DNA of 64,000 nt from Moniliella sp. 'wahieum'. Taxonomy: Eukaryota. Below the pieces are notes generated by a model. That model had not been told where the DNA came from. It saw only the letters and a program-made list of their open reading frames with translations, and searched no databases. The stretch spans positions 310,001 to 374,000 of the forward strand of contig RSEE01000024.1 of NCBI GenBank assembly GCA_003971905.1, written 5' to 3'. Positions 31,533 to 56,798 of this stretch are shown here, one piece after another. The stretch's first letter is position 1; each line of letters starts with the position of its first letter. Both the position numbers and the translations under genes were made by a program.

Positions 31533-32009
31533 CGTGCTAAGGCACTAAACGTACCGTAACGTAACGACTGCTGTACTAAAGGAAAGTACTCCCGGTCGTA
31601 CACGCCCTACCAACCTACTCACCGACCCTGTCTACAAAAGCTTCAAGCAAACGGCGATTCGTGCGTCCTGGCCATATCGTAGCCTCTGGCTTGGCTCCCC
31701 TCGCTCGCCTCGTTGGGTACAGGACGGGACGGGACGGGACAATACGATACGGCCTCGAACCATATCTCCCCTACTCTTACCTACCTGTCTACTCCCCCCT
31801 CCCCCTTAACTTACGAGGAGAAAAACAGACACATCGGACTAGGTGGGGGTTCCGCTGGGCTGAAGGAAATATAACAGGACACAGAGCATGCATCATCTCA
31901 ACATAACGTCCATCCTAGGTGGAGGTGCTCGTCGTGCGTCGGGGCCTCGGACCCTACGCTGCCGGTCGCGATGCACGTAAGGGACCGACCAGTCGGAAAC
32001 GAAACGAAG

Positions 32010-34134: not shown

Positions 34135-35044
34135 GAGGGGCAGAGGAGGAGGCAGAGGCCGAGGAGGAGCAGAGGCCAAGGAGGAGCAGACCAGACGGAA
34201 AAGACAGCGTAGGCCGCGGGAAGGCGGGGGAGCGGCGGGGCAGGTTTCTTCCCTCGGCCTTCGGCCTTCGGCGTCTCGGCGAGTGGCCGGCCGGGCGGCA
34301 GAAGCTGTTGATTGATCTGAGACTCGGATCTGATCATCCATCCATCCCGCCATCCAACACCCCGCCCGCCAGTCGCCTGCCTGCCACCGACGCCCCCCGC
34401 GTCTCTCCCGCCGCTGCCCACGCGCGCCAAGCCTCCCCCCCACACACGCCCACCCAGCAGCCTGGAGCCCCTAGCCCCCGCTCGCCCACTACCGGCTACC
34501 CCCATCCCCCGCGGCGCCGTCGCCCACGTCATCTCCCCCACCGCCAGCCGCCCCACACCCCATCGCGTGTCACCGGTCACACGTCACACGTCACGTGCAT
34601 CCATCGCCACCGCAGCCTGCTCCTCACCAGTCACACACTGCCCCCCCGCCGCCAAGTCACCATATCACACACTATGCATCATGCATCATGCATCCCGCAT
34701 CACACGCCCATCCATTCCGCCCGCCGTTCCCGCGTCCAATCGGTCCAATCTTGTCACGTGAGGTATGTGCATCCCTCTGTACCTTACCCTTTCATTCCCT
34801 CTGCCACACCACCGCCTGTGATTTTGACGCTTGCAAGATGGACGGTAGATTCATCCGATCGTCCGTTCCTCACGACGACGCCCCTCTCGCCCCGTCTCTG
34901 GTCCGCAATGCAACTCACCACAGACGACCGCGCCGCACATGCCCGTTTTGTCGTTCACCTCTGTCATCCCCTCCATCTTTTCCATGGGGTCTTATCAATG
35001 CAGCCACCAATATCATCTCGATATCAGTGTGACACCGCACAGGT

Positions 35045-35178
35045 GTAAAGGCGCCAGTAACCCAAGCCCAGAACCATGCTGTTCATTCCTTCTTGGTGGG
35101 CAGGCGTATTCCCTAGCCGCTTGCGTAGCTCATGTGCAATGCAATACACCATCCACTGCCTGCTCTCTGGTCTTCTAC
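35045..35178 (-). repeat. Dispersed repeat family R1, copy 3
   Basis: Translates as RRPESRQWMVYCIAHELRKRLGNTPAHQEGMNSMVLGLGYWR. Confidence 0.75.
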
Positions 35179-35407
35179 CCAGGCAGTGTCCCCATCCGTT
35201 CTCCCTCTGCACCAACGGAGCAACCCTGCCTGTCACATGTCACGCATCGTCTGCCGTCTCTACCAGGTGCGCTCAGGCTGAGCGATAAGCCGAATCGCTA
35301 ATCGGCGTCCACCTGGCATCATCACGTGACTGGCCCCTGCACCACTCGCAGCAGCATCCCCACTACCCGCAGCCCCGCGCCCAACCACCTCCCCACCGCC
35401 GGCTCCC

Positions 35408-37378
35408 ATGGCTCCGCTCGTCGAGTACCAAGCACCTTGTGCGTCCTGCTCCCCTTGGCTGCGCTTGGCTGCTGACTCACTCGACTTTGTCCCTGCCCCC
35501 GCCCCGCTCGCTCCGCCAGGGCCACTCTACTCACTGGCCTGGTCCTCGTCGCCCGTCATCTCCTCCACCACGGACTTCTCTGAGGACCTGACAGGCCAGC
35601 ACGCACCTGCTTCTACCGATACTCCCTACTCGGGCGATCTCCGCCGCCGCGCCAGCCGCCGCGGACGCCCAAACCACCGTCCCATTCCCGAGGGCGGCCG
35701 CGTGGCCATCGGCAGTTTCTTTGAAGAGTTTGCCAACCGAGTGCAGATCGTTGGGCTCGAAGTGGGCCCTGATGGGTGCGCAGTCTCTCCCTCCTCACTC
35801 CCCTCTCGCTTCTGCTTGCTTCGTAGATCTAACCCTACCCTTGCTGACGATCTGCAGCCAAGCGGAAATGCCGTTGCTGGCCGATGCGTCCCACCCGTAC
35901 CCAGCTACCAAACTAGCGTTCCAGCCTTCGACGCTCTCCTCTGCGCCTACCTTTCCTAGCTTAGGCGGTGCCCGCGCCGGGACTGGATCCGAAGCTGCCG
36001 CAGCTGCCGTGGCAGCGGCCAACAACTATAGTCCCAATACCAAGCAATCCACTTCCCAGGCCGCTGCGAGCGTTGGCTTACCAGACTTTTACCCGGACCG
36101 GGAGTTGCTCGCCTCGTCAGCCGACTCGCTGCGGATTTGGGAGATCAGTCGGAACGAGCGGTGGGCGAGCACAGCAGCAGAGGCGGAGGAAGAAACGCGC
36201 CGCGCCTCGGGGCGTATCAACGCATCGTCACGCTCGCGCCGTGCCGTGGCGGACGAGGTGGGAGTAACTTGCGCTTCAATTTGGTGGAAAAAAGTGTGTT
36301 GGCACATTCCCATTCCCATTCGGCCCGTAGCCCACCAGCACCTATGACGTCGTTTAGCTGGAACGTACCTTCGCCCTCGCTCGTCGTTACCAGTTCCATC
36401 GATACCACATGCACGATTTGGGACTTACCTACGCGCACGGCACTTACCCTGCTCATCGCACACGATAGCGAAGTGCACGATGTGGATTGGTGTCCCGGGA
36501 GTGCGGATGTGTTTGCGACAGTGGGCGCGGACGGGAGCGTGCGCATATTTGACCAACAACATCTCGAAAATTCCACTATCATCTACGAAACCTCGGCGTC
36601 GGATAGCATGCTGTCCCGGCCGGCGACGCGGAACGACAGTGCCAGTGCCAGTGGAGGTGGAGCGTCGGGGCGTGCACCGCCGTTGTTCCGGATCGCATTC
36701 AACCCCTGGGACGCGAATTACCTCGCGACGTTCAACCTCGAGTCCAATACGGTGCAGGTACTGGACGTGCGTGCGCCCGGCGCGCCCATTCTTGAGCTGC
36801 GTGGCCACACGGCCAGTATCAATGCTGTTTCCTGGGGCCCGCAGGGCGGCTGGGCCGGCCCAGGCCTCGGTCCATCCAAAGGAATGGTATGCACAGGCGG
36901 GGACGACTGTCAGTGCCTTGTGTACGACTTGGCTAGTACGACGCTCCGCACGGCAAGTCAACAAGGTCGGCGTAGTCGTAACTCCCACTCCAATCCCAAC
37001 GCCATGACCCCGGGCCAGTCGCACAGCTCGATGAGCATGCACGGTGTGCCCAGCCCGGCGCCCACTAGCTTGTCCACCTACTCAGCTTCGTCCTACACGT
37101 CTCGTGTGCCGGTGGAGCAGCCCGTGCTCGCCTACACGTCCCATGAGATGGTCAACAATGTGGCCTGGCTACGTGCGCCGGTTGTCAATCCCGAGCCGGT
37201 GGCGAGGGCAGCCTCGCACCCCAGTAGCGACACGGTCGTGCAAGAGTGGGACGAATACACCAAGGGTGTTCTGCCGCCGGGCCAGAGCCCGGTACCCGGA
37301 AGTCACACGGCCAAGTGGAAGGAACCTGATTGGCTGGCACTGGTCAGCGGTAACTCGGTACGGGCACTGCGGGTGTAA
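35408..37378 (+). CDS. DCAF7: WD40 scaffold protein, DCAF7/WDR68/AN11(TTG1) family, copy 1 (intron 35776-35857; frameshift ~36262)
   Basis: Family motifs HPYPATKL, LLASSADSLRIW, APMTSFSWN, TSSIDTTCTIWD, LIAHD.EV.D, FATVGADGSVRIFD, STIIYE and ELRGHTASINA. Confidence 0.9.
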
Positions 37379-38989
37379 GCGCTCAGAACACTTGCCTTCC
37401 CTCCTGGCGGGGTCGCTGGGATTGGTGGTGGCTAGTGAGCGCAGGAACTGGATCTGGATCTGGAATGGGAGACCTCCTCGTCCGGCTGTATATATGCACT
37501 TGGTTACGGACACACGTACCGCGTCCGTCGACTGCCGCGCTGGGCATGCGGAAGGGCACGGCAAGCAGGTAGGAGCGCTGGTGTGTCACCTTCTCTTCCA
37601 CAGGCAGGGCGCGTCTCAACCGTAGAAGAGACCGAGGGGAGAGGGTGGGTCGTGGGGTGAGGCAAAGCCTGAGGGGTAGTTAACCTGCCTGTGCGCATAG
37701 CCATCTGGCCTATGGTTTGCCCCGCATCCCATCCAGTAACTTTCCACGAGCAAGTGCTATCGGATTTGATGATATTCTTAGTGCCGCAGGGGGCTTCGCC
37801 TGCTTCGTCTGCTTCAGTCGCTGAGTCACTCAGTGGCAGCAAGTCCAATGTAGTTTACGGTGGGAGAGGGGATTACTACGGAACAGCCCAACAAGGCAGT
37901 TAGGGGATGGAGTTAGTAGCGTTAGGCCTCAACATTCAATGTCCTCCACGGGCTCCCATTGGCATCAAGACAGCAAGCAAGATGTGTGTCGGCACAGGAA
38001 CGAAATACTGAACTACTGCAGTGAGACTCAATGGAGATGATGTAGTTCACCGCTCGGATGTCGACCACAATGAAGTCCATCCGTCTCCACACGCGGTACC
38101 TCGGGCCAGTTTTATGGGAACGGGTGGCGGGCACCACAAAGAGTCCTGATCTGGCATTTTTCCTGGTTCCCTAAACGGGTTGGGCGCCACAAAGAAACAT
38201 ATTGCACGCCGGATGAGCGGGTCGGTTTAGGCGCAGCACTTTCTCTTTGCCGGGTCTCGGCCGTAAGCTCAGTCAATGATATGGGTGCCGAATAGAGATC
38301 GAGGGACATGTACTGATTCTGCACAATATACTCTAAACGATCACATACATACCTCTCACAAACCGGTGCGGACTAAGTGGAACATGTAGAGAAAAACAGC
38401 AGACGGAGATGTCCAAAACAGATGCGTTTTTTTTTTCTTTAAATAGTACTGTAGTGAACACATAAACCGTAAAGGCCCTGACCTAGGAGACAGCTAGTCT
38501 CTAAAGCCCACAGAACAGAACTTCAAGTGACGAAATATCAACAAGTAACGTCGGAGGAGACCGAGAGGTAAGGGATTGGGAAGGAGATGAGGAAGAAGAG
38601 GTGGTGGCGAAGAGGGCAATACAAGCAGTGGGAAAGGGAGTGTACACATGGCCTGCTGATAATGGCACTTGAAGCGTGCAGCAACTCAAGCCAGGGTCTG
38701 GCTTCCACAAAACTGTACCAATCAGGCCAGACGGCCACGCGTCACGGTGACATGGGAACAGGACGCCCAAGAGAGTATAAGAAGGAAAACAAAGCATGAA
38801 GATGAATGGCCCCGAGCAGAACGGATCGAGTCAGGAAAAGATGTAATACAAAATGATGAGAGATGAGGTATGTCAGATGCAGGAAAAAGTGCGGTGTGGC
38901 AAGATGGTGGTGTCGGAGGTGTTGAGTGGGTGTGGTGCATTGAGCAGTATGCTTGCAGAGTGGCATAGTTTGCAAACCAGGCAGCTTCA

Positions 38990-40488
38990 CTATGCTTCAG
39001 CTTTCTGCTGGTCGTCGAGGACACGCACAACAGCCCGACGCAGCCGGGGGCACTTCTTCAAGGCCTGGATAAACAGCTGGACAGCACGAGCTAGCAGGGG
39101 ATTCGTTTCGTCCACATCTGCATTCCGTGGAGCTGGCGCACCGGCTTCCTCCGCATCGATCCGGCTCAGGGCAAGGCGAGCAATGGCATTGTGGCCCGAG
39201 CCTTTGCAGGCAAGGTGGTACGCCAGGCCCTTGGTATCCTCAAACGTGCGGTTGCACGGGAACGAGTGGACTTGGGCACCCATGTACTGCGTATACTCGC
39301 TGTCCCCCCCTCCGACCTGGAGGGTGAGAGCGAGATCGAGTGGACTGCGCACTTGGCCCAGCGCTTCGGCCATGCAGGCCATTGGCTTGGGTGCCGCTCG
39401 AAGCAAGCCCGCCTGCATGAACGTGGCTGCTTCGGCGCGTGTCATGCCCTTGGAACAAGGGCCGGTGGCGTAACGCACCCCCCATCAGGGTCCTTTTGAA
39501 GCGCTCCGTGGCACAGATGCTTGACGCCCCTGCCAGTCACTTGGATGTGGTATTCAATCGCTTGCACTTTGTTGTACCCCGCCAGACAGTGGGGCAGGGA
39601 GCACATGTACAGCGAATTTCGCACGGCCGCCACTACCCCCGTGGCGTGCTTCACACCCACAAGTGCAGCATGACACCGTTGCACATGCTCTTGCAGTTCT
39701 TTGCCCGTGGCATATGTGGCCAAGATCCCCGTCCGCTCCTCCTTGTGCTCAGGTTCCAAAAGCGCCTGTTGATCGGACGGGAGGCGAGAGCAACGCTCCA
39801 GGATGGAAATTTCAGACGCGTCCGGCGTAAAGATCCGCATCCACTGCAACTTGCACCACGGTACGCCACAGCCGTACGGACGCACTAATGGGTCAGCCGG
39901 GCGTGCGACCACGTCGCATCGGATACTCCGGTTCCGGGTCCTGGGGGGCCTAGCTGGCGCCGTAGCCGTAGCCTCCACCTGGATGCTCCCTCCCGGCTCG
40001 CCCTGCTCGTCTCGCACCGGTCGCGAGCGCTGAGAAGGACGATATTGAATGTCTGGGGGCATGTCCATGCGGTCGCGGGAGGTAATGCGAGTGGGGGGAT
40101 GGGTAGGGGAAGAATCTGGCCCTGAAGCCATGACAGTGTCAACGGAGGTGAAACTGGAACGGGCACGAGAAGCGTCACCGTCGCCGGTGGGATCGTGAGA
40201 GGAAAAGCCAGACACGATAGGCGAAATATCAGTTGACGTGGGGTTGGACGGTGGCGTGGGAGGGATAAACACTACGGGGATGGGGGAAACGATGTGGTGT
40301 AGATCGGCATACGCATTCGATGATAGCCCCGTCGACATGCCACAAAGCGTCAGCGCGCCTCGCAACACATCATCATCACATTCGTAGCGGTTCGCTCCTG
40401 TGTTGCGAGATGGGATAAGCGACTTTCCTCGGAGAAGAGACGGACGGCGACGGAGATAGGGAGACGCACCAATGAGATAATGCGGCAT
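38990..40488 (-). CDS. Atypical C2H2 zinc-finger protein, copy 1 (1-bp deletion in a G run at ~39480)
   Basis: ORFs 39442..40488 and 38990..39478 join into a near-identical copy of the 499-aa ORF at 50759. Confidence 0.75.
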
Positions 40489-41799
40489 CGTCTATGCAGG
40501 CGTCGAAGAGAGTGAAGGGGGTGAAGGTGGTGGTGTGCGGTCTAGAAGGGATGCGACAGGCCGCTCATCCCCTTACAGCGGGGCGAGGAGGGGGCGGGCG
40601 TGGTAAGGGTGGCGGGCGTGTTGGGGGACGCAGCTGGGGTGAGGGCAGCATCTCTCCGCTTCTCTCCGTCTCCGACTTGAACATAATCATATTGAGTAAA
40701 CGGTCACTATTGCAAGGGTAAGCGTCACACCACACTCCCTCCGCAAGTGTAGGCACCGCGGAATCGCCTGGTGCGCCACTCTGCGCGTCCGTTGCTAGTC
40801 ATCAGCATCGGCGATACCGATGGAGTGCGCGGCAGAGGGGGGGCAGGGGATCGGTGCGCTGTTTTTTCGAGTGGGGCTGTCTCTGGAGGAGGAGGAGGTC
40901 GAGGAAGTTGCCCGTAAGACAGCTTGCTTCTCCCACTGCCTGCATCTCTTCGCTTGTGTGCCTCCCCCTCTTCCTTCCTCCCCCTCTTCCCTCCTTCCCG
41001 CCTTCCCCCGACGCCCGCGCTGCTGTGCGCTGCCCCCATTGCGAACGCGGCGGGGTGTGGGGGCGCAGGGTCTGGACAAGGGACTACCTGCGGGGCGTTT
41101 GCTCCGTCACACATCTCCCTGGTTCGATGCATCCGTAGGGACTGGGGACTGCCTGGACTATAGGGAGACGACTTGCAGCAATAATTGGTTTTGGTTACAC
41201 TGTTGGGCACGAGCCACATTGATTGGTTAAATTACACTGAGCACAGAAGAGCCGCTTTTGATAAAAAATTACACTACTGAGCAAGAGCCACCGCTTTTTT
41301 TCCCAGTACACTCTGCAAGCGCCACGCAGTCTCCAACTCCGTAATGTTCAACTTGAAGGCAAAGAGCTTGGAGACGGGGGATCTGAACTCCGCCGACAGA
41401 GCCTGCCATCAAAACCCGCGGGTAATGCATGGCTGGGTGGCCATCGCGCCAGTGTGAACGGGGATGGTGCTGCTACAGCCGAGGGGCGTGAGGTGGCGAT
41501 GATCGATGATTATCGAAAAGACGATACACCGGTTCAAACCATCTCTACCGCATATATTTTTTCCTGTTGGGTCCCTTTTGACTACACAGTTTCTGTGTGG
41601 GTAAAGACGCATAGTATGAACAGCAAGCGTGTGCGCTCTCTGCCGCGTAGTGCTTGATACTTCTCTTAGGTCTTCGACCTCTATATGCGGCCGTTAGTAG
41701 TAATAGGTGGACTCTGCTGCCGTCCAGTGCCTATCCCCAACCAACTATTCAAGTGATCACAGTCGGTGCTCACAGGGCCCACATCGGAGTGTAACGTAG

Positions 41800-41975
41800 T
41801 TCTAAGCCACTGGTTACTGTGGCGCCGGTAGCCCAGGCCTGGAACCTTCAGGTTCATTGCTTCCACAATATTCCTTCCTGGAGGCTGAAGTATTCTCTAG
41901 CCGCTGTATTTCATGTGCAAAATGCAATATACGCCATCATGCATTAACTGCAATGTCTGCTCTCTGGTCTTCTAT
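41800..41975 (-). repeat. Dispersed repeat family R1, copy 4
   Basis: Contains EAMNLKVPGLGYRR (copy 1 has HAMNQKVPNLGYR) and the same 5' end TAGAAGACCAGAGAGCAG. Confidence 0.75.
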
Positions 41976-42747
41976 TAAGTACGAAAGGCTACCACTCCTC
42001 GACTGATGCGGATTGAAAGAAAAAACAACGGGGAAAGGTAGAGTAGTACCGGGCCGGAAGATGACGTATCTTCATCCAAACACTAATACTAATACCTGAT
42101 CGCGCCAGCCATATTGGAGAACAGCTGGGTGCTTTTTTAGAACTATGGAGCCGAAGTGCGGATTTCCAGGACTGGGTCGGGCAAGAGAGAACTCGAGAGG
42201 AAATTGAATGTCGAGGACCGTCATGAAGCCCTAAGGGGGCTGACGGATGAGGCTTGACGTAGTCTGCGGGCTCGTGCACCGTCAGGACGTGTGCATTCAC
42301 ACGGGGTAACAATGATGATAGCGATAACTGTGGGTATATCGTGTCTCCCCTCTATGCCAGACCTCCCTACCATCACTCTCAATTTACTTGGCAGAGAAGT
42401 GTGTTCTCGCCACGCGAGAGTCGAGGAGACCTGGCATGGCAGTCTGAGATCCGACACATGGGAGTGAAAGTTGAAATGTGATGGGTGACGCGTGACGTGT
42501 GAGAAAGGCGGAGGGCGGAATGCGGCCTGAAACTTGAATCTGAAATTGCTGAAACGTGCAGTTTATGTTTACGATGCGGGCCTTTCACTTGGCTTCAATT
42601 TTTTTTTGGCTGCCCGACCGCCTCCACTCCACCTCCACCTCACCTCCATCTCCAACTCCATCTCCATCTCCATCTCCACTCCGTTTCCCTCTAGATCTCC
42701 ACCCACGCCGCCCCCACACAGTCGGCCCTGCTCTTCAACACCCGGCC

Positions 42748-45613
42748 ATGCCGCCACCGCTGCCAACGACAGCATCGCCACCGGCACCTGCGGGAACCAC
42801 GCCGCCGCCTACGGATCCAACTGCTGCCGCCCTGGCCGTTGCTCTTGCCGCAGCAAGGGCTGCTGCGCCCGCTGCGCCCACCGCCCCTCCCCCCTCCGCC
42901 ATTCCCGCTGCTCCCGCCGTACCTCCGTCCACCGGCCCACACGCCCCACCTCCTTCCCTCCCGACGGCCACCAACCGCAACCACCCAGCCTTTGTCAACA
43001 AGCTGCGCAGCATGGTTGACGACCCTTCGACCAACGATCTGATCCGCTGGAGTCCATCGGGCAAGTCCATCTTCATTTGCCACCCCGCCCGCTTTTCGGA
43101 ACAGCTGCTGCCCCGCTACTTTCTCCACCGCAAGCTCAGCAGCTTTGAGCGGCAGTTAAATATGTATGGCTTCCACAAGGTGCCGCACTTGCAGGCCGGT
43201 GCGCTGGCCCCGTCGTGGGGGGGCGCCAGCACGACCCAGCCATTGCCTTCCTCGGCTGGGTCTGCGGGGCCGATTCCCAGCACGCGCACCTCGGCTGAAC
43301 AACAGCAGGACGACCAAGCGATCAATGAGTTCCACGCGTCTGCCGCGCCCGGAGCAGAGGACTTGGAGCTGCGCGAGTTTATGCACGAGTATTTCCAACG
43401 CGACCATCCCGAATGGCTCAACCTGGTTGTGCGCAAGAAGTCCACTCCGCACGCCAATGCAGGGATGAAGAAGCGCTCCAAGGATGCAGTCTACGACGAA
43501 GAACTGTTGGCCCCGACGATTGAGGAGCCGCGAGACCGAACCCCGCCCCCCCATGGCCCGCTTCCGTGGCAACCAATGGGACTGATTGGCGCGCCCCCGC
43601 CGCCCGGGATGCCCAACGCCGTCTCGCCGTACTATGGGCGTCCTCCATCGGACGTGCCTCTTGCGCTGGTCGAAGCCATTCTGGTTGCCAACGGACTGCA
43701 CAGCACCCCCGCCGCCATCGCTGCCGTCGCAGCTACCTTGACGGGGAACAACCCGCATATGGCAGCGTTGAATTCGGGTGCATCTTCTTCTTCCATGCCC
43801 GTCCCTCCGCCCACGACAGCGAGTGGAAGTGGCAGTGGGAGCGGGAATGCGAGTGCGGGTGTTAGCTCTGGGGTGCCACCGGCGCCCGCACCCGAGCTGC
43901 GGAACAACTCTTCGGCCAAGCCACGTGGGTCACCCAACAAAGCGCCGGCAGGGAGCTCGAGCGGGTACACTCCGCCGGGTGGGATGCCGACGTTCCCCTT
44001 TCCCCCGATGGGGGCGGCCAACGCCTACCCCCCCGGTTCGCCCTGGAACATGAATGTGAACCTGGGTGCGGTGTTGCAAACGCTACAGACGACGCAGAGC
44101 GACTTGGTGCGGGAGATTGCGCATCTGCGCACGGCGCAGCACCGACTGTGGCAGGACAGTCAAGAAGAAAAGAAACGGTATCGGAAACACCAGGATGTGC
44201 TACAACGTATTCTTCGGTTCCTCGGGGGCGTATTTGGCGCGACGCCGGCGCTTCCGCCACCGGAAAGTGCGTTGGATCTCGATTCGCCCCCCGAGGCAGC
44301 AGGAAGACAGCCCGCATGCGCCCAAACGGCCGCGCACGTCCTCCTTCCGTACCGACCCTGTCGACCGCGTACCGTCGCCCCAAGGCGCCAACATCGAAGA
44401 ACTGCTCGACTCGGTTCCCGATCTCAGCCCGGCGCCCACATCCACGCCCCCGCCTACCTACACGTACCCGTCCACGTCCACGTCCACCTCCATGCCCCCC
44501 CATCCCGAGCCAGGCCCGTTCGACCCCACCCCGACGGGAAGCGGTACGGTGTTCCCCCCCGCTCGGCGGGGACTGATGATTGAAGGACCCAGCGGATGGA
44601 AAGGGGACCCGTCCTCAGGATCAGCATCGGGATCGGGACTGGCCGTGTCGCCCGCCGAGCTCCCCCCTGGTCCGCGGTTTACGCGACTGCGTTCGCCCCC
44701 TCCCCCGGCGAGCTCGGATGCGGGTGCGGGTGCGGGTGCAGGGTCAGGTTCAGGGCGAGAGGAACGACCGAACCTCTCCCGGTCCCAATCCTCCAGCAAT
44801 CAGGTGCTCAAGGCCACGCCGCCTCGTCGAGGGGCCAAGGCTGCGTCAGTGAGTAAGGACCAGGTAGCGTCGTGGATCCATCAATTGATGAACCAACCTG
44901 CTTCGCCAGCTGGAAGTCCTGGACTCGGACCTTCCTCCCCGCCGTCCGCGTCGGCCCATTGGGACGATGCCTTGAACTCGACCGACGCCCAGGTGCAAGC
45001 GCTGCAACTCTCCATTGCCGCGCTGGCTCAAAGCCTTCACCATGGTCCTGGTACCGGTACTGGCACTGGTATTGGTCCGGGACCAGGCGAGGCGTCGCAT
45101 GTGGATCCGACGCTGGCTCCCTCCTCGACAGCTACACCTTTTGTCCCCTTGGCCCCTTCGGGCTCCTCGGCGCCTACGGCTGCCCCCGACGCAGCGTCCG
45201 GGACCGGAACTGGGACAGAGGTATCGCCTTCGGACCCCACAGCGGAGGAAATGTTGTTCCACCAGTTCCTCCAACCGGATCGGGAGGCCGAAGTGACCAC
45301 GCCCCTTCCTGCGCGTGACTCGGCACGTTTCTCGCCCTCGCCTTCGTCCTCGTCCTCGCTTTCGGCTTCGGCTTTGCCTTCGCCTTCGTCCGTGCCCTCG
45401 GCCTTACCCTCGGCCTTGCCTGATTCGACCGACGGGAAATCCATCGTTCGGGAGATGACGCCGGCTATGCGGGTGCCTACGCCGCCTCCTGCGGCGGTCG
45501 AGGCGGGAGCAGAAGCAGAAGAAGGGAAAAGAGAAGGGGATGTGTTCTCCTTGTCGCCCTTTGAGCCGGACACTACGACTATGCATGTCCCCAGTCCTCG
45601 GCCTACGGCGTAA
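42748..45613 (+). CDS. HSF1: Heat shock transcription factor (frameshift ~44300)
   Basis: HSF DNA-binding domain PAFVNKLRSMVDD...LIRWS...LLPRYFLHRKLSSFERQLNMYGFHKV...EFMHEYFQRD, then a heptad region. No receiver domain is visible, which argues against Skn7/Prr1. Confidence 0.88.
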
Positions 45614-45951
45614 CCACTTCACCTCCACCTCCACCTACACCTACAACAGCCAATGTCCGACCCGACGTGGGAGAGTAGAATAGAATGTATCATCTGTACA
45701 GTAGTACTACCTACCTATGTTGCTACCTACCTACCTATGTGTCTACGTTTCTACGTTTCTACCGAAGTTTTAGTTCCCTCTTGGATCCTGGTGAGCGCGT
45801 CTTCATAACAATCAAGCAAGAACGCAGTCACAAGGCGAAACAACGTAGCCACGTAACGCGTAACCACGTAACCACATAGCCTCGTAAGTTCGGTGCGCAG
45901 ACCAACGAGAGGTAGGTACCGATTAAGAGATTAGGTAGTAATTGGCCAAAA

Positions 45952-48900: not shown

Positions 48901-49439
48901 GGAACGCGTCGTCCTGCGAGTAGCGTTTGGGCCGACCGAGGACAAAGCGGGCGCAGCATGAGGTATTGCGTGTGCAGAGGGTAGCTCATCGGGAACGCTG
49001 CCAATGCGCGTTCAAACACGAGGGTGATACGCTGGAGCGCAAGGCGCTGGGCTGCGTTCCCGAGGAACCCGAGGCGGGGGCCTGCCAGGCCGAGGTCGGG
49101 GTCGGGAGCAGGGAGTGGGGTGTGGGAGGGCAAGGGGTCGGCAAGCTGGTTGTGCGCGCGGACATGGGCAATGTAGGAGACCCATACCCGCTCCGACGTG
49201 GCTCCGCTCTGCTGCAACGATGTTTCCCACGACGCGTCCGACGCGGGCACCAGGCCGGGAATGGCGAGCGGCGAAGGCACGGGCCAGGTGAGGGGGAAGA
49301 GCGACGTGGCGGCGGCCAGCTTGCTCGGCTGGGGCGAGGTGGGGGCAGCGGTGGGTGGGTCTTCTGGATGGAGTGTGGATGGCGGTGGCGGTGGCGAGGG
49401 CGAGGGCGCCTTGGGCTTGCGGCCCCGTTTGGGCGGCAT
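45952..49439 (-). CDS. SYF1: Pre-mRNA splicing factor Syf1/XAB2 (HAT repeats; intron 46507-46613; frameshifts)
   Basis: Motifs MPRLWIMYL, RRTFDRALRTLP, LLRRNPHDVAEWEKR, SLKLWSFYLDL, YGGTKMERARDLFEQAL, ERKLGEVDRARAIY and EETFREMLRIKRSVQA. Confidence 0.95.
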
Positions 49440-50758
49440 GGCGAGATGGTGGTGGAGTTGCATCCTTCGATCCCAGCCCGCGTCCTCGCAGCGGAAGCAG
49501 CGGATTACCTAACGCACAGGGCTCGTTTCAAGTTGCAATAGGCAGGTGCATGTTTCAATGTGTCTATAGCGCACTGTTGATACTGGGTACGGAGTGCTTG
49601 TTAATTAACCGCCAGCCGACAAGAGAAGCGCCGCTGTTGCGACTGGTCGCCTGAATCGGTTGGGGATGTGGGCTCAGCAGCAGCCCACCTACTGCCGCGT
49701 AGAGGTCGAAGACCTAAGAGAGTAGAGATGGTTTGAATCGGGGTATCATCTGTTCGATAATCATCGATTATCGCCACCTCACGCCTCTCGGCTGTAGCAG
49801 CACCGTCCCCGTCCAATACACTGGGGCGATGGCCACCCAGCCATGCATTACCCGCGGGTTTTGATGGCAGGCTGTCGGCGGGGTTCAGATCCCCATCTCC
49901 AATCACCCTGCGTTCAAGTTGAACATTACGGAGTTGGAGACTACGTGGCGCTTGCGGAGTGTACTGGAAAAAAAGCGGTGGCTCTTGCTCAGTAGTGTAA
50001 TTTTTTATCAAAAGCGGCTCTTCTGCTCAGTGTAATTTAACCAATCAATGTGGCTCGTGCCCAACAGTGTAACCAAAACCAATTATTGCTGCAAGTCGTC
50101 TCCCTATAGTTCAGGCAGTCCCCAGTCCCTACGGATGCATCGAACCAGGGAGATGTGTGATGGAGCAAACGCCCCGCAGGTAGTCCCTTGTCCAGACCCT
50201 GCGCCCCCACACCCCGCCGCGATCGCAATGGGGCAACGCACACCAGCGCGGGAAGGAGGGAAGAGGGGAGGAGGGAAGAGGGGGAGGCACACAAGCGAAG
50301 AGATGCAGGCAGTGGGAGAAGCAAGCTGTCTTACGGGCAACTTCCTCGACCTCCTCCTCCTCCAGAGACAGCCCCACTCGAAAAACAGCGCACCGATCCC
50401 CTGCCCCCCCCCTCCGCCGCGCACTCCATCGGTATCGCCGATGCTGATGACTAGCAACGGACGAGCAGAGTGGCGCACCAGGCGATTCCGCGGTGTCTAC
50501 ACTTGCGGAGAGAGTGTGGTGTGACGCCTACCCTTGCAATAGTGACCGTTTACTCAATATGATTATGTTCAAGTCGGAGACGGAGAGAAGCGGAGAGATG
50601 CTGCCCTCACCCCAGCTGCGTCCCCCAACACGCCCGCCACCCTTACCACGCCCGCCACCTCCTCACCCCGCTGTAAGGATGAGCGGCCTGTCGCATCCCT
50701 TCTAGACCGGACACCACCACCTTCACCCCCTTCACTCTCTTCGACGCCTGCATAGACG

Positions 50759-52258
50759 ATGCCGCATTATCTCATTGGTGCGTCTCCCTATCTCCGTCGC
50801 CGTCCGTCTCTTCTCCGAGGAAAGTCGCTGACCCCATCTCGCAATACAGAAGCGAACCGCTACGAATGTGATGATGATGTGTTGCGAGGCGCGCTGACGC
50901 TTTGTGGCATGTCGACGGGGCTATCATCGAATGCGTATGCCGATCTACACCACATCGTTTCCCCCATCCCCGTAGTGTTTATCCCTCCCACGCCACCGTC
51001 CAACCCCACGTCAACTGATATTTCGCCTATCGTGTCTGGCTTTTCCTCTCACGATCCCACCGGCGACGGTGACGCTTCTCGTGCCCGTTCCAGTTTCACC
51101 TCCGTTGACACTGTCATGGCTTCAGGGCCAGATTCTTCCCCTACCCATCCCCCCACTCGCATTACCTCCCGCGACCGCACGGACATGCCCCCAGCCCGTC
51201 AACCTCGCCCTTCTCGGCACTCGCGACCGGCGCCAGACCAGCAGGGCGAGCCAAGCGTGAGCATCCAGGTGGAGGCTACGGCGCCAGCTAAGCCCCCCAG
51301 GACCCGGGATCGGAGTATCCGATGCGACGTGGTCGCACGCCCGGCTGACCCATTGGTGCGTCCGTACGGCTGTGGCGTACCGTGGTGCAAGTTGCAGTGG
51401 ATGCGGATCTTTACGCCGGACGCGTCTGAGATTCCCATCCTGGAGCGGTGCCTCTCTCGCCTCCCGTCCGATCAACAGGCGCTTTTGGAACCTGAGCACA
51501 AGGAGGAGCGGACGGGGATCTTGGCCACATATGCCACGGGCAAAGAACTGCAAGAGCATGTGCAACGGTGTCATGCTGCACTTGTGGGTGTGAAGCACGC
51601 CACGGGGGTAGTGGCGGCCGTGCGAAATTCGCTGTACATGTGCTCCCTGCCCCACTGTCTGGCAGGGTACAACAAAGTGCAAGCGATTGAATACCACATC
51701 CAAGTGACTGGCAGGGGCGTCAAGCATCTGTGCCACGGAGCGCTTCAAAAGGACCCTGATGAGGGGGTGCGTTACGCCACCGGCCCTTGTTCCAAGGGCA
51801 TGACACGCGCCGAAGCAGCCACGTTCATGCAGCAGGCGGGCTTGCTTCGAGCGGCACCCAAGCCAATGGCCTGCATGGCCGAAGCGCTGGGCCAAGTGCG
51901 CAGTCCACTCGATCTCGCTCTCACCCTCCAGGTCGGAGGGGGGGACAGCGAGTATACGCAGTACATGGGTGCCCAAGTCCACTCGTTCCCGTGCAACCGC
52001 ACGTTTGAGGATACCAAGGGCCTGGCGTACCACCTTGCCTGCAAAGGCTCGGGCCACAATGCCATTGCTCGCCTTGCCCTGAGCCGGATCGATGCGGAGG
52101 AAGCCGGTGCGCCAGCTACCCGGAACGCAGATGTGGACGAAGCGAATCCCCTGCTAGCTCGTGCTGTCCAGCTGTTTATCCAGGCCATGAAGGAGTGCCC
52201 CCGGCTGAGTCGGGCTGTTATGCGTGTCCTCGACGACCAGCAGAACGCTGAAGCATAG
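50759..52258 (+). CDS. Atypical C2H2 zinc-finger protein, copy 2 (499 aa, intact)
   Basis: RPYGCGVPWC...YATGKELQEHVQRCH; YMCSLPHCLAGYNKVQAIEYHIQVTGRGVKH; FPCNRTFEDTKGLAYHLACKGSGH. Confidence 0.75.
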   Translation: MPHYLIGASPYLRRRPSLLRGKSLTPSRNTEANRYECDDDVLRGALTLCGMSTGLSSNAYADLHHIVSPIPVVFIPPTPPSNPTSTDISPIVSGFSSHDPTGDGDASRARSSFTSVDTVMASGPDSSPTHPPTRITSRDRTDMPPARQPRPSRHSRPAPDQQGEPSVSIQVEATAPAKPPRTRDRSIRCDVVARPADPLVRPYGCGVPWCKLQWMRIFTPDASEIPILERCLSRLPSDQQALLEPEHKEERTGILATYATGKELQEHVQRCHAALVGVKHATGVVAAVRNSLYMCSLPHCLAGYNKVQAIEYHIQVTGRGVKHLCHGALQKDPDEGVRYATGPCSKGMTRAEAATFMQQAGLLRAAPKPMACMAEALGQVRSPLDLALTLQVGGGDSEYTQYMGAQVHSFPCNRTFEDTKGLAYHLACKGSGHNAIARLALSRIDAEEAGAPATRNADVDEANPLLARAVQLFIQAMKECPRLSRAVMRVLDDQQNAEA

Positions 52259-53966
52259 TGAAGCTGCCTGGTTTGCAAACTATGCCACTCTGCAAGCATA
52301 CTGCTCAATGCACCACACCCACTCAACACCTCCGACACCACCATCTTGCCACACCGCACTTTTTCCTGCATCTGACATACCTCATCATCTCATCATTTTG
52401 TATTACATCTTGTCCTGACTCGATCCTACCTCATCATCTCATCTTTTTGTATTACATCTTTGCCTGACTCGATCCGTTCTGCTTGGGCCCGTTCATCTTC
52501 TTGTTTTCCTTGTTACTTTCTTGGGCGTCCTGTTCCCACGGCACCGTGAGGCAACGCCGTCTGGCCTGATTTGTAGTTGTGGAAGCCAGGCCCTGGCTTG
52601 AGTTGCTGCACGCTTGCCATCAGCAGGCCACATGTGTACACTCCCTTTCCCATTGCTTGTACTCCCCTCTGCGACACCACATCTCCTCTTCTTCCGCATC
52701 TCCTTCCCTTTCCCTTTCCTCTCGGTCACCTCGGTCGTTACTTGTTTATCATTCGTTGAAGTTCTGTTCTGTGGGCTTTAGAGACTAGGTGTCTCCTAGG
52801 TCAGGGTCTTTACGGTTTACGTGTCACTACAGTACTAAAAAAACGCATCTGTTTTGGACATCTCCGTCTTTTGTTTCTCTGCATATTCCACTTAGTCCGC
52901 ACCGGTTTGTTTGTTCCACTTAGTCCGCACTGGTTTGCGTGTTCCACTTAGTCCGCGCCGGTTTGTGAGGTATGTATGTGATCGTTAAGAGCATATTGTG
53001 CAGGTACCAACCATCAACGTATCCCTCGATCTTTGTTCTGCGACAGTCATTGACAGTGCTTACGGCTGAGACACAACCAACTGGACCAAGTGCTGCGCCT
53101 AATAAGCCGACACGCTTATCCGGCGTGCAGTGTGTTTCTTGGTGGCGCCCACCCCGTTTAGTGAGCCAGGGGAATCGTCAGATCCGGATCCTCTCAGTGT
53201 GGTGCCCGCCATCCGTTCCGATAAGACTTGCCCGGAGTAGCGCGTGTGGATACGGATGAACATATCATTGTGGTCGATATCCGAGCGCCGGTGAGAACTA
53301 CATCATCTCCATTGGGACTCACTGCAGTATAGTTCAGTATTTCGTTTCTGTGCCAACACACATCTTGCTTGCTGTCTTGGTACCAATGAGAGTCCGTGGA
53401 GGCACGGGCTCCCATTGAATGTTGAGGCTCAACCCTAAAGCTACGAACTCCATCCACTAATTGCCTCGTTGGGCTGTTCTGTAACATGTAATCCCCTCCC
53501 CCACCGTAAATTACATTGCACTTGCTACCACGGTGACCCAGCGACTGAAGCAGACGATGGAAGCAGGCGAAACCCCCTGCGGCACTAGTAAAAATATCAT
53601 CGAATCCGATAGCACTTGCTCGTGGAGGGATGCTGGGTGTGGGATGCGGGGCAAACCATAGGCCAGAGAGGGCTAAGTGCACAAGCCGTTTAACCACCCT
53701 CAGGCTTTGCCTCGCCCCACGACCCACCCTCTCCGCTCGGTTTCTTCTACGGTTGGGGCCCGCCCTGCCTGTGGAAGAGAAGGTGGCACACCAGCGCTCC
53801 TACCTGCTTGCCGTCCCATGCGAAAGCGTACACAGTACATGTATACGTAACCAAGTGCATAGACGGACGAGGACACCCGTTCCAGAACCAGATCCAGTTC
53901 CTGCGCCCACTAACCACCACGAATCACAGCGACCCCACCAGGAGGGAAGGCAAGTGTTCTGAGCGC

Positions 53967-55892
53967 TTACACCCGCAGCGCCCGTACCGAGTTGCCGCTC
54001 ACCAGTGCTAGCCAATCGGGTTCCTTCCATTTGGCCGTCTGGCTTCCGGGTGCCGGGCTCTGGCCCGGCGGCAGAACGCCCTTGGTGTATTCGTCCCACT
54101 CCTGCACGACCGTGTCGCTCCTGGGGTGCGACGCTGTGCTCACCGGCGGCTCGGGCTTGACAAATGGCGCCCGTAGCCAGGCGACATTGTTGACCATCTC
54201 GTGGGACGTGTAGGCGAGCACGGGCTGCTCCACCGGTACACGAGACGAGTAGGAGGAGGCCGAGTAGGTGGACATGCTGGTTGGCGCAGGGCTCGGCGCA
54301 CCGTGCATGCTCATCGAGCTGTGCGAGTGACCCGGGGTCATCGAGTTGGAGTTCCGACTGCGGCGGCCTTGTTGGCTTGCCGTGCGTAGCGTCGCACTGG
54401 CCAAGTCGTACACCAAGCACTGACAGTCGTCCGCGCCTGTGCACACCATGCCTTTCGACGGCCCGAGTCCGGCCCAGCCGCCCTGCGGCCCCCACGCCAC
54501 AGCATTGATGCTGGCTGTGTGGCCACGCAGTTCGAGAATGGGCGAGCCTGGCGCGCGGACATCCAGCACCTGCACCGTATCCGACTCGAGGTTGAACGTG
54601 GCGAGGTAATTCGCATCCCATGGGTTGAATGCGATCCGGAGCAACGGCGGCGCACGTACTGACGCAGCACTTGCACTCCCATTCCGCGTCGGAGGCCGGG
54701 ACAGCATGCTGTCCGACGACGAAGTTTCGTAAATGATGGTCGAGTTTTCGAGATTTTGCTGGTCAAAGATGCGCACACTCCCATCCGCGCCCACCGTCGC
54801 AAACACATCCGAACTCCCGGGGCACCAATCCACATCGTACACTTCGCGATCGTGGGCGATGAGCTGGGTAAGCGCGGTGCGCGTAGGCAAGTCCCAAATG
54901 GTGCACGTGGTATCGATGGAACTGGTAACGATGAGCGAGGGCGAAGGCACGTTCCAGCTAAACGACGTCATGGGCGCTGGCGGGCTACTGGCTGAATTGG
55001 AATGTGCCAACACGCTCTTTTCCGCCAACTCGAAGCGCAAGTTGGTCGCCACCTCGCCCCCCGCGTGACGGCGCGAGGATTGTTGATATGCGACGAGGCA
55101 CGTCGCGATTCTTCCTCCACCTCGGCCGCCGTGCCGGCCCACTGCTCGTTCCGACTGATCTCCCAAATCCGAAGCGAGTCGGCCGACGAAGCGAGCAACT
55201 CGCGGTCCGGGTAAAAGTCAGGTAAGCCAACGCTCGCAGCGGCCTGCGCAGAGGATTCCTTGGTATTGGGACTATAGTTGTTGGCCGCTGCCACAGCAGC
55301 TCGCGGCTTCGGACCGGCGCGGGCGCCGCCGGCACCAGGAAAGGTCGGCGCAGAGGAAAGCGTCGAGGGCTGGAAAGCTAGTTTGGTGGCTGGGTACGGG
55401 TGGGACGCATCGGCCAGCAGCGGCATCTCCGGTTGGCTGCAGATCGTCAGCAAGGGTCAGCTCCACGAAGCAAGAAGGGAGAGGGGAGTGAGGAGGAGGA
55501 GGAGGAAGGAGAGACTGCGCACCCATCAGGGCCCACTTCGAGCCCAACGATCTGCACTCGGTTGGCAAACTCCTCAAAGAAACTGCCGATGGCCAAGCGG
55601 CCGCCCTCGGGGATGGGGCGGTGGTGCGGGCGACCGCGGCGGCTGGCGCGTCGGCGGAGATCGCCCGAGTAGGGAGTGTCGGCAGAGGCAGATGTGTGCT
55701 GGCCCGTCAGATCCTCAGAGAAGTCCGTGTTGGAGGAGATGACGGGCGACGAGGACCAGGCCAGCGAGTAGAGCGGCCCTGGCGGAGCGAGCGGGGCGGG
55801 GGCAGGGACAAAGCCAAGCGAAGGTCAGCAGCCAAGCGCAGGCAAGGAGAGGAGAACGCACATGGTGCTTGGTACTCAACGAGCGGAGCCAT
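53967..55892 (-). CDS. DCAF7: WD40 scaffold protein, DCAF7/WDR68/AN11(TTG1) family, copy 2 (intron 55437-55522; frameshifts)
   Basis: Same motifs as copy 1, including TQLIAHDREVYD and PPLLRIAFN, with the intron in the same position. Confidence 0.9.
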
Positions 55893-56798
55893 AAGGGGCG
55901 GCGGCGGAGAGGTGGATGGGCGCGTGGATGCGGGTGGCGTGCGTGCTGCTGCGGATGGATGTGGATGCTGGTGTGGGTGCGCCGTTGGTCAGGGGCGGGG
56001 CGGAGCCAGGGCGGAACGGCGGGGCTCGGAATGCGCGCTGGGCCGCGCTGCCGTATCTGTGCGACTCAGCTGCAAGTCACGTGATCCCCAGGTGGCCACC
56101 AATCAGCCTGATTGCTCAGCGCAACTAAAGGGGCACGAGGACAGAGAGGGTTGTTCCTCCGTTGCTCCGTTGCTACAGAGAACCAATGGGGTACCTGGTT
56201 GGCCTCCCGCACATCCTTGATTGCTACCCGTTGTTCCAGCGTCCAAGGAATGAGGCGTGGTACGCCCCGCTCTTCCTTCTTCGTTCAAGGGGAGCCAGGG
56301 TTCAGTGCCTATCTTGTAGGAAAATGGCATGCATGTAATGGATCCGGCAGAAAATAAACCACGGATATCTGCGGGAGCATGGTGATGGACTCTGCCCACT
56401 GCAGGTGTGGTGCTGTGTGAGGCAAAGAGGGGGTGAGGCCAAAGAAAGAGCGGCGGGGATTGGTGGTGGAAGCTGGGCACGACGGATGAGAGGGCAATGT
56501 CGTCGTTCCATCCGTTCGATTGTCGTGCGGCATGGGCATCCGGAGGGAGCGCCCTGGTACTAGGCACGCTGGTTGGTGGTTGGGCTGCGGCGACCATTGG
56601 GAGGAGGCGCTATGCTGGCCTGGGATCGTATGATGGCTAGGGATGGATGGCCACATCGCTACTTCAGAGCACGCATCCCGGCGGGGCACGCGGGCGGAAC
56701 CAGCGCGGGCGCATTCCGCGCGTGGTCTTCCTGCGGCGCACTGGCCGCGCTGGGCTGGTAAAGTATTGGAGCAGTGCCTGGGGAAGCTACCTGCGACC

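Follow-up and report, generated by a model that had tools for sequence, protein, structure and literature searches.

An inverted duplication around HSF-type and SYF1 genes in an Ustilaginomycotina fungus, with signs of patchy gene conversion between its arms

Introduction

Two genes of this fungal genome are present twice, in opposite orientation, on either side of a segment that carries an HSF-type transcription factor gene and the splicing-factor gene SYF1. Does such an arrangement act as a switch that inverts the enclosed segment, or is it the trace of an old duplication whose copies have gone on exchanging sequence? The original prediction, made from the DNA alone, had proposed both a regulatory flip-flop and exchange between the arms. 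We analysed the window, a stretch of 64,000 nucleotides from Moniliella sp. 'wahieum' (assembly GCA_003971905.1, contig RSEE01000024.1, positions 310,001 to 374,000), and all coordinates given here are positions within it. The most plausible explanation, and in our view a probable one, is an old inverted segmental duplication, the inner part of which would have been kept alike by patchy arm-to-arm gene conversion while the outer part escaped. The case for conversion is drawn from two sequences in one assembly.

Organisation of the locus

A repeat search across 30000-60000 returned 37 pairs, and all 25 of those listed were colinear pieces of one large inverted repeat. When one arm was aligned by blastn to the reverse-complemented other arm, three colinear HSPs were obtained: 35347-38384 versus 55953-52940 (84.7% identity, 3107 columns), 38358-38870 versus 52910-52427 (84.3%, 521 columns) and 38823-41548 versus 52426-49722 (95.7%, 2739 columns). 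By both searches the left arm occupies 35347-41548 and the right arm, its reverse complement, 49722-55953; at ~6.2 kb each, they are somewhat shorter than the ~6.5 kb first proposed, and the unique spacer between them (41549-49721) measures 8173 nt instead of ~7.9 kb. An extra 26-nt match near the inner arm ends (41658-41683 versus 49724-49700) suggests that arm homology resumes past a 110-nt indel.

Each arm is composed of a WD40 gene of the AN11/WDR68/DCAF7 type and a Cys/His-rich gene, placed tail-to-tail. The duplicated block starts ~60 nt upstream of the WD40 ATG and includes 1 kb of DNA upstream of the Cys/His-rich gene. The complete order is TLC(-), WD40(+), Cys/His(-), HSF-type(+), SYF1(-), Cys/His(+), WD40(-) and BCS1(+). 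Within the spacer, the HSF-type gene (42565-44583, plus strand) is a single ORF of 672 aa with a PF00447 match (E 2.7e-26), and SYF1 (45828-49463, minus strand) encodes HAT repeats in ~3 exons. On the outside, a TLC-domain gene (33076-34353, minus strand) stands head-to-head with the left WD40 copy and a BCS1 AAA-ATPase gene (56912-58685, plus strand) with the right one. The inverted duplication is real, with gene order, strands, gene identities and head-to-head pairings as originally described.

A dispersed element of ~130 nt lies just outside the left arm (35060-35200, plus strand), with a second direct copy just inside the spacer (41800-41950) and two further copies, both on the minus strand, at 17750-17890 and 8620-8800. 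Between 2 and 14 kb, at a distance of 21 kb from the left arm, lies a gene-poor block with a GC content of 0.48-0.53.

Uneven divergence of the arms

The aligned arms differ at 507 of 6098 compared positions. That they are homologous and diverged had been predicted and is confirmed, but the divergence is uneven and falls into two tiers of identity. A maximum chi-square break is situated at ~38815, with 12.4% of positions differing outside and 3.2% inside, a statistic reached in none of 300 permutations. The outer part (35347-38837, partner 52461-55953; ~3.5 kb) carries the WD40 gene and has a blastn identity of ~85%, whereas the inner part (38838-41548, partner 49722-52460; ~2.7 kb) comprises the Cys/His-rich gene and its upstream DNA. 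The two parts are colinear and abut directly; the sole feature at their junction is a 49-nt unit, present in 2.0 tandem copies in the right arm only (52378-52475), which sits exactly at the identity step and is likely a barrier to conversion tracts.

The inner part is itself a mosaic. Its 85 differences over 2669 positions are spaced such that stretches of 329, 282 and 209 nt match perfectly; a run as long as the first arose in one of 2000 permutations, and a sum as large as that of the top three in none. Within it lies an apparently unconverted island (39931-40067): of its 137 columns, 19 are mismatches and 6 are gaps, which puts mismatch at ~14%, on a par with the outer arms. On one side the island is bordered by the 329-nt perfect tract (40068-40396), and on the other by 39131-39788, where 662 columns contain one mismatch and four gap columns. 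The substitution spectrum is ordinary, with transition/transversion ratios of 1.25 in the outer and 1.59 in the inner part, and the arm differences of neither part revealed a GC shift, a GC-bias mark of conversion or a RIP-like pattern.

Could purifying selection alone have kept the inner part alike, with no conversion at all? The high-identity block does match one transcription unit, extending from the inner end of the arm to ~170-200 nt beyond the stop codon of the Cys/His-rich gene. Yet the WD40 genes show a dS of 0.37 and the Cys/His-rich genes one of 0.031, a 12-fold difference between adjoining genes at synonymous sites, and ~1 kb of non-coding DNA upstream of the Cys/His-rich gene is 96-98% identical, compared with ~89% for WD40 coding sequence. 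Since synonymous and upstream non-coding sites also differ between the tiers, the step is not explicable by constraint. Constraint on the Cys/His-rich protein is in any case weak, as indicated by an omega of 0.76 and one frameshifted copy, and we regard selection as an extremely unlikely explanation.

Another alternative is a two-step origin. An old inverted duplication would account for the 85% part, and a later, separate duplication or replacement for the inner 2.7 kb, with no ongoing conversion. In its favour, identity changes abruptly at the position of an indel, and one younger event could account for an inner divergence that averages 3.2%. Against this, inner divergence alternates between 0% in the three perfect tracts and ~14% in the island, the tiers are colinear with no foreign junction sequence, and a replacement templated by the other arm would be gene conversion anyway. 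We consider this scenario unlikely. Sequence exchange between the arms, as originally proposed, is supported by the step in identity, by the way perfect tracts are interspersed in the inner part and by the 12-fold gap in dS.

Fates of the duplicated genes

The left WD40 copy (35408-37378, plus strand) was modelled with exons 35408-35438, 35520-35775, 35858-36160 and 36295-37378, and the right copy (53967-55892, minus strand) with exons 55892-55862, 55778-55523, 55436-55143 and 55014-53967. The corresponding loop of each copy shows an apparent 1-nt frame break, near 36255-36268 on the left and near 55074-55087 on the right. Outside that loop, all coding indels are multiples of three, and indels of other lengths, including one of 2 nt, fall in GT-AG introns; judged from their sequences, both copies are otherwise intact. 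The paralogues are 91% identical in protein (493 of 542 aligned positions), with dN 0.046 and omega 0.12. Purifying selection is retained on both, and the left copy has changed more.

The assignment to DCAF7/AN11, a family of WD40 scaffold proteins, was well founded. PF00400 and β-propeller models match the gene, 1224 proteins match it at E <= 1e-20, and similarity to named members is full-length. Homologues carry names such as 'related to human and petunia an11 protein', 'WD repeat-containing protein 68' and 'DDB1- and CUL4-associated factor 7', with E values of 1e-57 to 1e-118 and 38-59% identity in basidiomycetes. Among the 120 matches listed, no species name occurs twice in the named rows, an observation weakened by there being one name per 90% cluster. 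The Candida albicans orthologue is described as working with the DYRK-type kinase Yak1 (PMC10820326).

The right copy is 96.8% identical to a protein of a close relative, P0011 (429 of 443 aligned residues). At 32 sites the right copy agrees with P0011 against the left, and at only one site does the left copy agree with it against the right. With Tilletiaria as reference, 14 changes are derived in the left copy, seven in the right and 27 are ambiguous. By these comparisons the left WD40 gene is the more derived paralogue. Whether the duplication preceded or followed the split from the closest relative was addressed with a protein tree, in which the two copies group together with support of 85-93 and a grouping of the right copy with P0011 is not rejected (p-AU 0.149); both topologies remain.

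The Cys/His-rich pair has fared differently, with dN 0.023 alongside its low dS. The right copy (50759-52258, plus strand) is an intact ORF of 499 aa in which each of the 12 Cys/His positions that are invariant across the aligned family is preserved. In the left copy (38990-40488, minus strand), a 1-nt deletion near 39482 leaves an ORF of 348 aa (39442-40488) without the last conserved Cys/His module, and this copy looks truncated. The family is tiny, unnamed and lineage-restricted, with four homologues besides the two copies. Cys and His are invariant at C205, C210, H267, H272, C295, C300, H313, H323, C372, C412, H425 and H433 in an alignment of only five sequences. The 'zinc finger' label originally given is not upheld by any match to a C2H2 profile, and no Pfam family was found in either copy or in any of the four homologues. 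A profile search against PDB chains gave weak best matches to a DPF2/ubi-d4 finger (E 0.12) and to GLI (E 0.76), an Atlas search provided leads only (score 0.92, 139 shared features), and the structure model, with a mean pLDDT of 41.9, is too poor to judge a Cys-x4-Cys ... His ... His spacing. The protein is referred to below as C2H2-like. The findings speak neither for nor against the original suggestion that the co-duplicated WD40 and C2H2-like proteins could work as a pair.

Altogether, the arms contain three apparent 1-nt frame breaks, one in each WD40 copy and one in the left C2H2-like copy, and none occurs in the non-duplicated genes and long ORFs of the window. They may be consensus errors caused by the repeat itself, which may distort local identity as well. 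This hint of a poorer consensus within the repeat is also what speaks for an assembly artefact, either a mis-joined haplotype or a chimeric fold-back contig. Several features are at odds with it. A fold-back chimera gives identical arms and no spacer, whereas here the arms differ at hundreds of positions and are separated by 8.2 kb of unique DNA in which both genes are intact. If haplotypes had been mis-joined, the flanks would be mirrored as well, but the DNA outside the left arm, with TLC, is unrelated to that outside the right arm, with BCS1, and 85% identity with a dS of 0.37 is, in our judgement, far above expected allelic divergence. Unrelated outer flanks and a window free of N make both mirrored assembly and straightforward mis-joining of haplotypes unlikely, in keeping with the original reading that the arms are neither mirrored nor collapsed, and we give an artefact of either kind hardly any credence.

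Inversion of the spacer

If the arms recombine, do they also serve to flip what lies between them? In its regulatory form, the proposal holds that they reversibly invert the HSF-SYF1 segment and thereby switch expression, as the flip-flop loci of Ogataea and Komagataella do. Inverted repeats with perfect tracts of up to 329 nt do surround the 8.2-kb segment and bear marks of recombination with each other; moreover, only one of the C2H2-like copies is intact, the other being truncated, and a crossover between promoter and frameshift would, we infer, change the allele beside each spacer gene. The remaining evidence is contrary. The ends of the segment hold only the single-copy HSF-type and SYF1 genes, with no alternative gene sets, and none of the window's ORFs that were scanned with Pfam showed a mating-type, homeodomain, pheromone-receptor or recombinase domain, as the original prediction had noted for recombinase and mating-type genes. 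No silencing site was found beside a repeat: neither arm adjoins a centromere- or telomere-like feature, and the sole gene-poor, lower-GC block is 21 kb off. The 2.7 kb flanking the spacer on both sides are nearly identical, which means that HSF and SYF1 would find themselves in practically the same surroundings after an inversion. For Ogataea, by comparison, the inverted-repeat copies are described as identical over 2 kb and the switch as operating by centromeric silencing (PMC5720833). Nothing points to a programmed or regulatory switch at this locus, and the proposal in that form appears highly improbable.

A related and likewise very unlikely reading is a working invertible cassette, in which crossovers in the inner arms flip the 8.2-kb segment and give two heritable, interconvertible expression states with no mating-type genes involved. 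The crossover point may then decide whether the intact and truncated C2H2-like alleles are swapped between the HSF-side and SYF1-side divergent promoters. If this were true, the arm-to-arm conversion would be the footprint of flipping, in a basidiomycete.

Discussion

The favoured explanation, old duplication followed by patchy conversion, can be set out as a series of events. A 6.2-kb block with the WD40 and C2H2-like genes would have been copied, inverted, to the far side of HSF-SYF1. Repeated and patchy non-reciprocal recombination between the arms would then hold the spacer-proximal 2.7 kb at 96-100% identity, while the distal 3.5 kb would have escaped conversion and are now ~85-88% identical. 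Heterology at the 49-nt indel and mismatch beyond it probably block extension of the heteroduplex. Since the intermediates of this recombination can also be resolved as crossovers, it seems plausible that the 8.2-kb spacer is now and then inverted passively.

The locus is, in effect, a small autosomal palindrome in an Ustilaginomycotina fungus whose nearest named relative is Tilletiaria. As in palindromes of the mammalian X and Y, inverted arms enclose a unique spacer and genes occur once per arm. In the human Y palindrome P6, the published account describes arm-to-arm conversion with multi-kb tracts and only rare inversions (PMC3723533). A signature of exchange is common to both; there, non-reciprocal tracts are reported to span hundreds to thousands of bases (PMC3723533). 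Mammalian palindromes, however, are described with >99% identity and arms of at least 10 kb, whereas the present arms are 6.2 kb long and reach 84.7% identity in their outer and 95.7% in their inner portions; homogenisation persists in no more than the spacer-proximal 44% of each. The fungal host, the lack of a detected GC bias and the absence of any link to a sex chromosome are further differences.

In Ogataea polymorpha (FF1) and Komagataella phaffii (FF2), inverted repeats of a few kb are reported to bracket ~10-20 kb (138 kb in Komagataella) and to recombine by homologous recombination, inverting the segment without a dedicated site-specific recombinase (PMC5720833, PMC6692504). The present locus shares with them the inverted repeats around a segment, here of 8173 nt. 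It differs in having no MATa/MATalpha or other alternative gene sets and no recognisable centromere or telomere beside a repeat; its repeats are diverged, its inner genes (HSF-type and SYF1) are housekeeping ones, and it is known in one orientation.

The identity step at ~38815 is a new result, in a genome structure that is itself of a known kind. Conversion may at first make duplicates evolve together, until mismatch or indels stop it and the copies diverge, thereby escaping concerted evolution. The locus resembles this model in having one block that still appears to exchange, another at dS 0.37 and an indel at the boundary; the model is a descriptive one that defines no family, and the succession of events proposed for this locus is inferred from one genome.

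Current understanding is unchanged by these observations, which add a clean fungal example. Divergence of the outer arms is sufficient for primers specific to each arm, and orientation could be scored with 3-kb PCR products. The locus would offer a compact natural system for asking what stops conversion tracts, the candidates being the 49-nt indel and >10% mismatch, how often inversion accompanies conversion, and how a paralogue changes once it has been relocated and has acquired a new promoter. Both fates of duplicated DNA, a concerted block and an escaped block with diverging DCAF7/AN11 paralogues, would be represented in one 20-kb stretch of a fungal genome.

Architecture of the inverted duplication

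The repeat search returned 37 inverted pairs in 30000-60000, and the 25 displayed are colinear pieces of a single structure. Comparison of the left region with the reverse complement of the right one by blastn gave three colinear alignments: 35347-38384 with 55953-52940 (84.7%, 3107 columns), 38358-38870 with 52910-52427 (84.3%, 521 columns) and 38823-41548 with 52426-49722 (95.7%, 2739 columns). This puts the arm length at about 6.2 kb (left 35347-41548, right 49722-55953), with a unique spacer of 8173 nt (41549-49721) in between. Beyond the arm ends, a 26-nt match (41658-41683 versus 49724-49700) suggests that the homology briefly picks up again past a 110-nt indel. The flanks outside the two arms have no sequence in common, and the window contains no N bases. 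By both the repeat pairs and the alignments, the inverted duplication claimed in the original prediction is confirmed, far above chance.

Pfam also bears out the gene order proposed there: a TLC-domain gene (33076-34353, -), the left WD40 gene (35408-37378, +), an HSF-type gene (42565-44583, +; PF00447, E 2.7e-26), SYF1 with its HAT repeats (45828-49463, -), the right WD40 gene (53967-55892, -) and BCS1 (56912-58685, +). Further out lie genes for a MyTH4 plus WW domain protein (25534-27511, -), AMP deaminase (29232-31545, introns of about 100 nt), a fungal-specific transcription factor (59245-62337, -) and a DnaJ-domain protein (63112-63717, +). Intact long ORFs outside the arms include those of the HSF-type (672 aa), fungal-type transcription factor (1030 aa) and TLC (425 aa) genes, while the Pfam coordinates of AMP deaminase, SYF1 and BCS1 run on across gaps of about 100-140 nt, as expected of ordinary introns. 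The Rfam search gave no matches at gathering scores and the tRNA scan no genes.

The HSF-type gene of the spacer matches in PDB the DNA-binding domains of HSF1, HSF2 and HSF4. It could be either HSF1 proper or an Sfl1-like factor, Sfl1 being a protein with an HSF-type domain. In Candida albicans, Sfl1 is a reported candidate target of the Yak1-WDR68/DCAF7 pair (PMC10820326).

Other features of the window

A block of about 12 kb (2000-14000) has a GC content of 0.48-0.53, against about 0.60 elsewhere, and holds a single ATG-started ORF of at least 150 aa (207 aa). None of its 19 scanned stop-to-stop ORFs had a Pfam match; the block could consist of degenerate repeats or be a centromere-like region. 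Two long ORFs (14587-16621 and 19218-21032; 581-604 aa) are built of 30-nt periodic Gly/Trp-rich repeats, comprising a 90-nt family with 26 copies as well as 233-nt and 165-nt families. Neither contains a Pfam family, and they look like repeat-rich, possibly secreted or wall proteins. A 10-nt microsatellite array with GCAAAGCAAG-type units (22848-22997) adjoins the gene for ribose-5-phosphate isomerase A (23089-23847, -). At the window start (1-777), a 154-nt unit occurs in six tandem or dispersed copies of 68-100% identity, all inside an open frame of 549 aa that continues beyond the edge of the window.

The WD40 paralogues

The WD40 gene is assigned by homology to the AN11/WDR68/DCAF7 family. 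It is matched by 1224 proteins at E <= 1e-20, with names such as ‘related to human and petunia an11 protein’, ‘WD repeat-containing protein 68’ and ‘DDB1- and CUL4-associated factor 7’. Among the matches listed, Tilletiaria anomala is the nearest organism with a name (65% identity, last exon), followed by other Ustilaginomycotina, which places the window in a fungus of this subphylum. A PDB search with exon 4 retrieved generic WD40 chains only, and a DCAF7 entry was absent from the best 60. Duplication of this orthologue is perhaps unusual; in the list of 120 WD40 matches, where one name is displayed per cluster, no species name is repeated in the rows that bear one.

Both copies have GT-AG introns at identical places, and it is within these that the 2-nt and other indels not divisible by three are found. 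The modelled proteins (left 557 aa, right 542 aa) share 493 identical residues over 542 aligned positions. With dS of 0.37, dN of 0.046 and omega of 0.12, both copies have therefore been under purifying selection through most of their history. Each has one 1-nt frame break, at differing positions, in the loop between the residues EISRNE and NLRF: near 36255-36268 in the left copy (loop 36161-36294) and near 55074-55087 in the right one (loop 55015-55142). This poorly conserved loop is annotated as coding in T. anomala and in frame in three near-identical proteins of close relatives (P0011, P0131 and P0132). GT..AG pairs able to splice it out are present in both copies, at different positions, and are devoid of the CTGAC-type branch site found in the clear WD40 introns. 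The breaks may represent small introns, consensus errors induced by the repeat or lesions of recent origin.

The C2H2-like gene pair

The second gene of each arm is the one called a zinc finger in the original prediction. Only four relatives (738-1245 aa, E 1.1e-15 to 3.2e-7) emerged from an exhaustive HMMER search covering 1.84 billion representatives; the names of their cluster members are uninformative, and a word-seeded search found no homologue at near or at shorter lengths. Neither the gene nor its four relatives contain a Pfam family. Twelve Cys/His positions are invariant in all five sequences and form the modules C-x4-C...H-x4-H and C-x4-C-x12-H-x9-H plus a third one. Against PDB chains, the profile found weak C2H2 matches only (DPF2/ubi-d4 finger, E 0.12; GLI, E 0.76). 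‘C2H2-like’ is a fair label, membership of the C2H2 proteins being putative. The structure predicted from the five-row alignment (mean pLDDT 41.9, pTM 0.27) was too poor for a fold search, and an ESM Atlas search supplied leads only.

The positional GC of the ORF is similar to that of other genes. The right copy is intact (499 aa), whereas a 1-nt deletion near 39482 shortens the left one to 348 aa, with loss of the last conserved module; the remaining three indels between the two ORFs are multiples of three. The pair has 11.5 synonymous and 25.5 non-synonymous differences (dS 0.031, omega 0.76). Since other long ORFs of the window have no frame problem, the three 1-nt breaks are confined to the repeat.

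Two tiers of identity and probable arm-to-arm gene conversion

The arm alignment contains 507 differences over 6098 positions, each gap run being counted as one event, and these are very unevenly spread. Measured over 200 columns at a time, ungapped identity lies at 0.81-0.93 over 35371-38837, the outer, WD40-bearing part, and 0.92-1.00 over 38838-41378, the inner part next to the spacer. A maximum chi-square break at 38815 separates 12.4% differences outside from 3.2% inside, and its statistic was reached in none of 300 permutations; the inner block accounts for roughly 85 of the paralogous differences. The step lies 170-200 nt beyond the stop codon of the C2H2-like gene and coincides exactly with a 49-nt unit present as two tandem copies in the right arm and one in the left. 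It is seen across coding and non-coding DNA: the arms share 96-98% identity over the 1 kb of non-coding DNA preceding the C2H2-like gene, against about 89% over the WD40 coding sequence, and neutral divergence changes 12-fold between the two gene pairs (dS 0.37 versus 0.031).

Selection as the cause of this step is ruled out, because synonymous and intergenic sites are affected, omega of the inner gene is 0.76 and one of its copies is truncated. RIP-like hypermutation as the source of arm divergence is likewise rejected by a transition/transversion ratio of 1.25 in the outer part and the lack of an AT shift; together with 1.59 in the inner part, this ratio reflects an ordinary substitution spectrum. 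GC content is equal in both tiers, with no detectable GC-biased conversion.

Had the inner part arisen by a single later duplication, its divergence should be uniform, but it is a mosaic. Perfect runs of 329 nt (40068-40396), 282 nt (39131-39412) and 209 nt (39581-39789) occur in it; the longest was reached in one of 2000 permutations and the sum of the top three in none of 2000. Between perfect runs lies an island of 137 columns (39931-40067); it contains 19 mismatches plus 6 gap columns, a divergence equal to that of the outer arms. The step in neutral divergence, the perfect tracts and the old-looking island make up the footprint to be expected if gene conversion between the arms has been repeated and patchy, and they support the exchange of sequence that the original prediction had proposed. 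An old duplication would thus have been homogenised in its inner part by conversion, from which the outer part presumably escaped. In yeasts, mismatch-repair-dependent anti-recombination is established to suppress recombination between copies when mismatch rises above about 10% and indels build up. The 49-nt indel could plausibly act as a barrier to conversion.

Age and polarity of the duplication

The three WD40 proteins from close relatives differ from one another by 1-2 residues; their identity with the right copy is 96.8%, against 89.9% with the left one. The right copy agrees with P0011 against the left at 32 sites, both copies agree against P0011 at four, and the left copy agrees with P0011 against the right at one; relative to T. 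anomala, 14 changes are derived in the left copy and 7 in the right, with 27 ambiguous. Of the two paralogues, the left one has therefore changed faster. The WD40 tree joins the two copies with support of 85-93, and the alternative that groups the right copy with P0011 has a p-AU of 0.149, so it is unrejected; on this tree, the duplication could be older or younger than the split from that relative.

Four copies of a dispersed, roughly 130-nt element occur in the window with 75-82% identity (35060-35200, 41800-41950, 17750-17890 (-) and 8620-8800 (-)); the first two, in direct orientation, stand on either side of the left arm, and the right arm has none nearby. The element may hint at the way in which the duplicate was inserted, or at the side on which this happened. 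The left arm could be the daughter copy, a polarity compatible with its derived WD40 gene, its truncated C2H2-like copy and the bracketing elements.

Three assemblies carry a right-copy-like WD40 orthologue on contigs of 5419, 5662 and 5666 nt, similar sizes that would fit contig ends at a repeat boundary in the relative too. Searches at near and at shorter lengths gave no C2H2-like protein from this P0011-type relative. A metagenome scan with the WD40 alignment identified seven loci at 54-59% identity and one fragment at 79%, in which tblastn detected no C2H2-like, HSF, SYF1, BCS1, TLC, fungal-TF or AMP-deaminase protein. With no neighbouring gene shared at 54-59% protein identity, synteny is therefore uninformative at that distance.

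Spacer inversion and comparison with known systems

Occasional passive inversion of the spacer is mechanistically plausible, because crossovers and conversions share intermediates and the inner arms hold perfect tracts of 200-330 nt. In the human Y palindrome P6, where conversion is frequent, only three inversions came to light among 378 chromosomes (PMC3723533).

The regulatory flip-flop suggested in the original prediction, a switch of the Ogataea/Komagataella kind, is unlikely. This locus shares the bare architecture of those loci but lacks one of their defining features, alternative gene sets at the segment ends; nothing centromere- or telomere-like was seen adjoining either arm as a candidate for another, a silencing site beside the repeat (PMC5720833, PMC6692504). 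The inner arms are nearly the same on both sides; with 2.7 kb so alike flanking the spacer, inversion would barely alter the surroundings of the HSF-type gene and SYF1. In accord with the first reading, which had seen no recombinase or mating-type gene, mating-type, homeodomain, receptor, transposase and recombinase domains were absent from all Pfam scans. A crossover could reshuffle just one functional asymmetry, that between the intact and the truncated C2H2-like allele.

Closest in behaviour are palindromes with arm-to-arm conversion, although this locus is much smaller, much more diverged and homogenised only in part, and falls outside the mammalian palindrome definition (at least 10 kb, with >99% identity). 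The most fitting label is that of an inverted segmental duplication, part of which undergoes concerted evolution.
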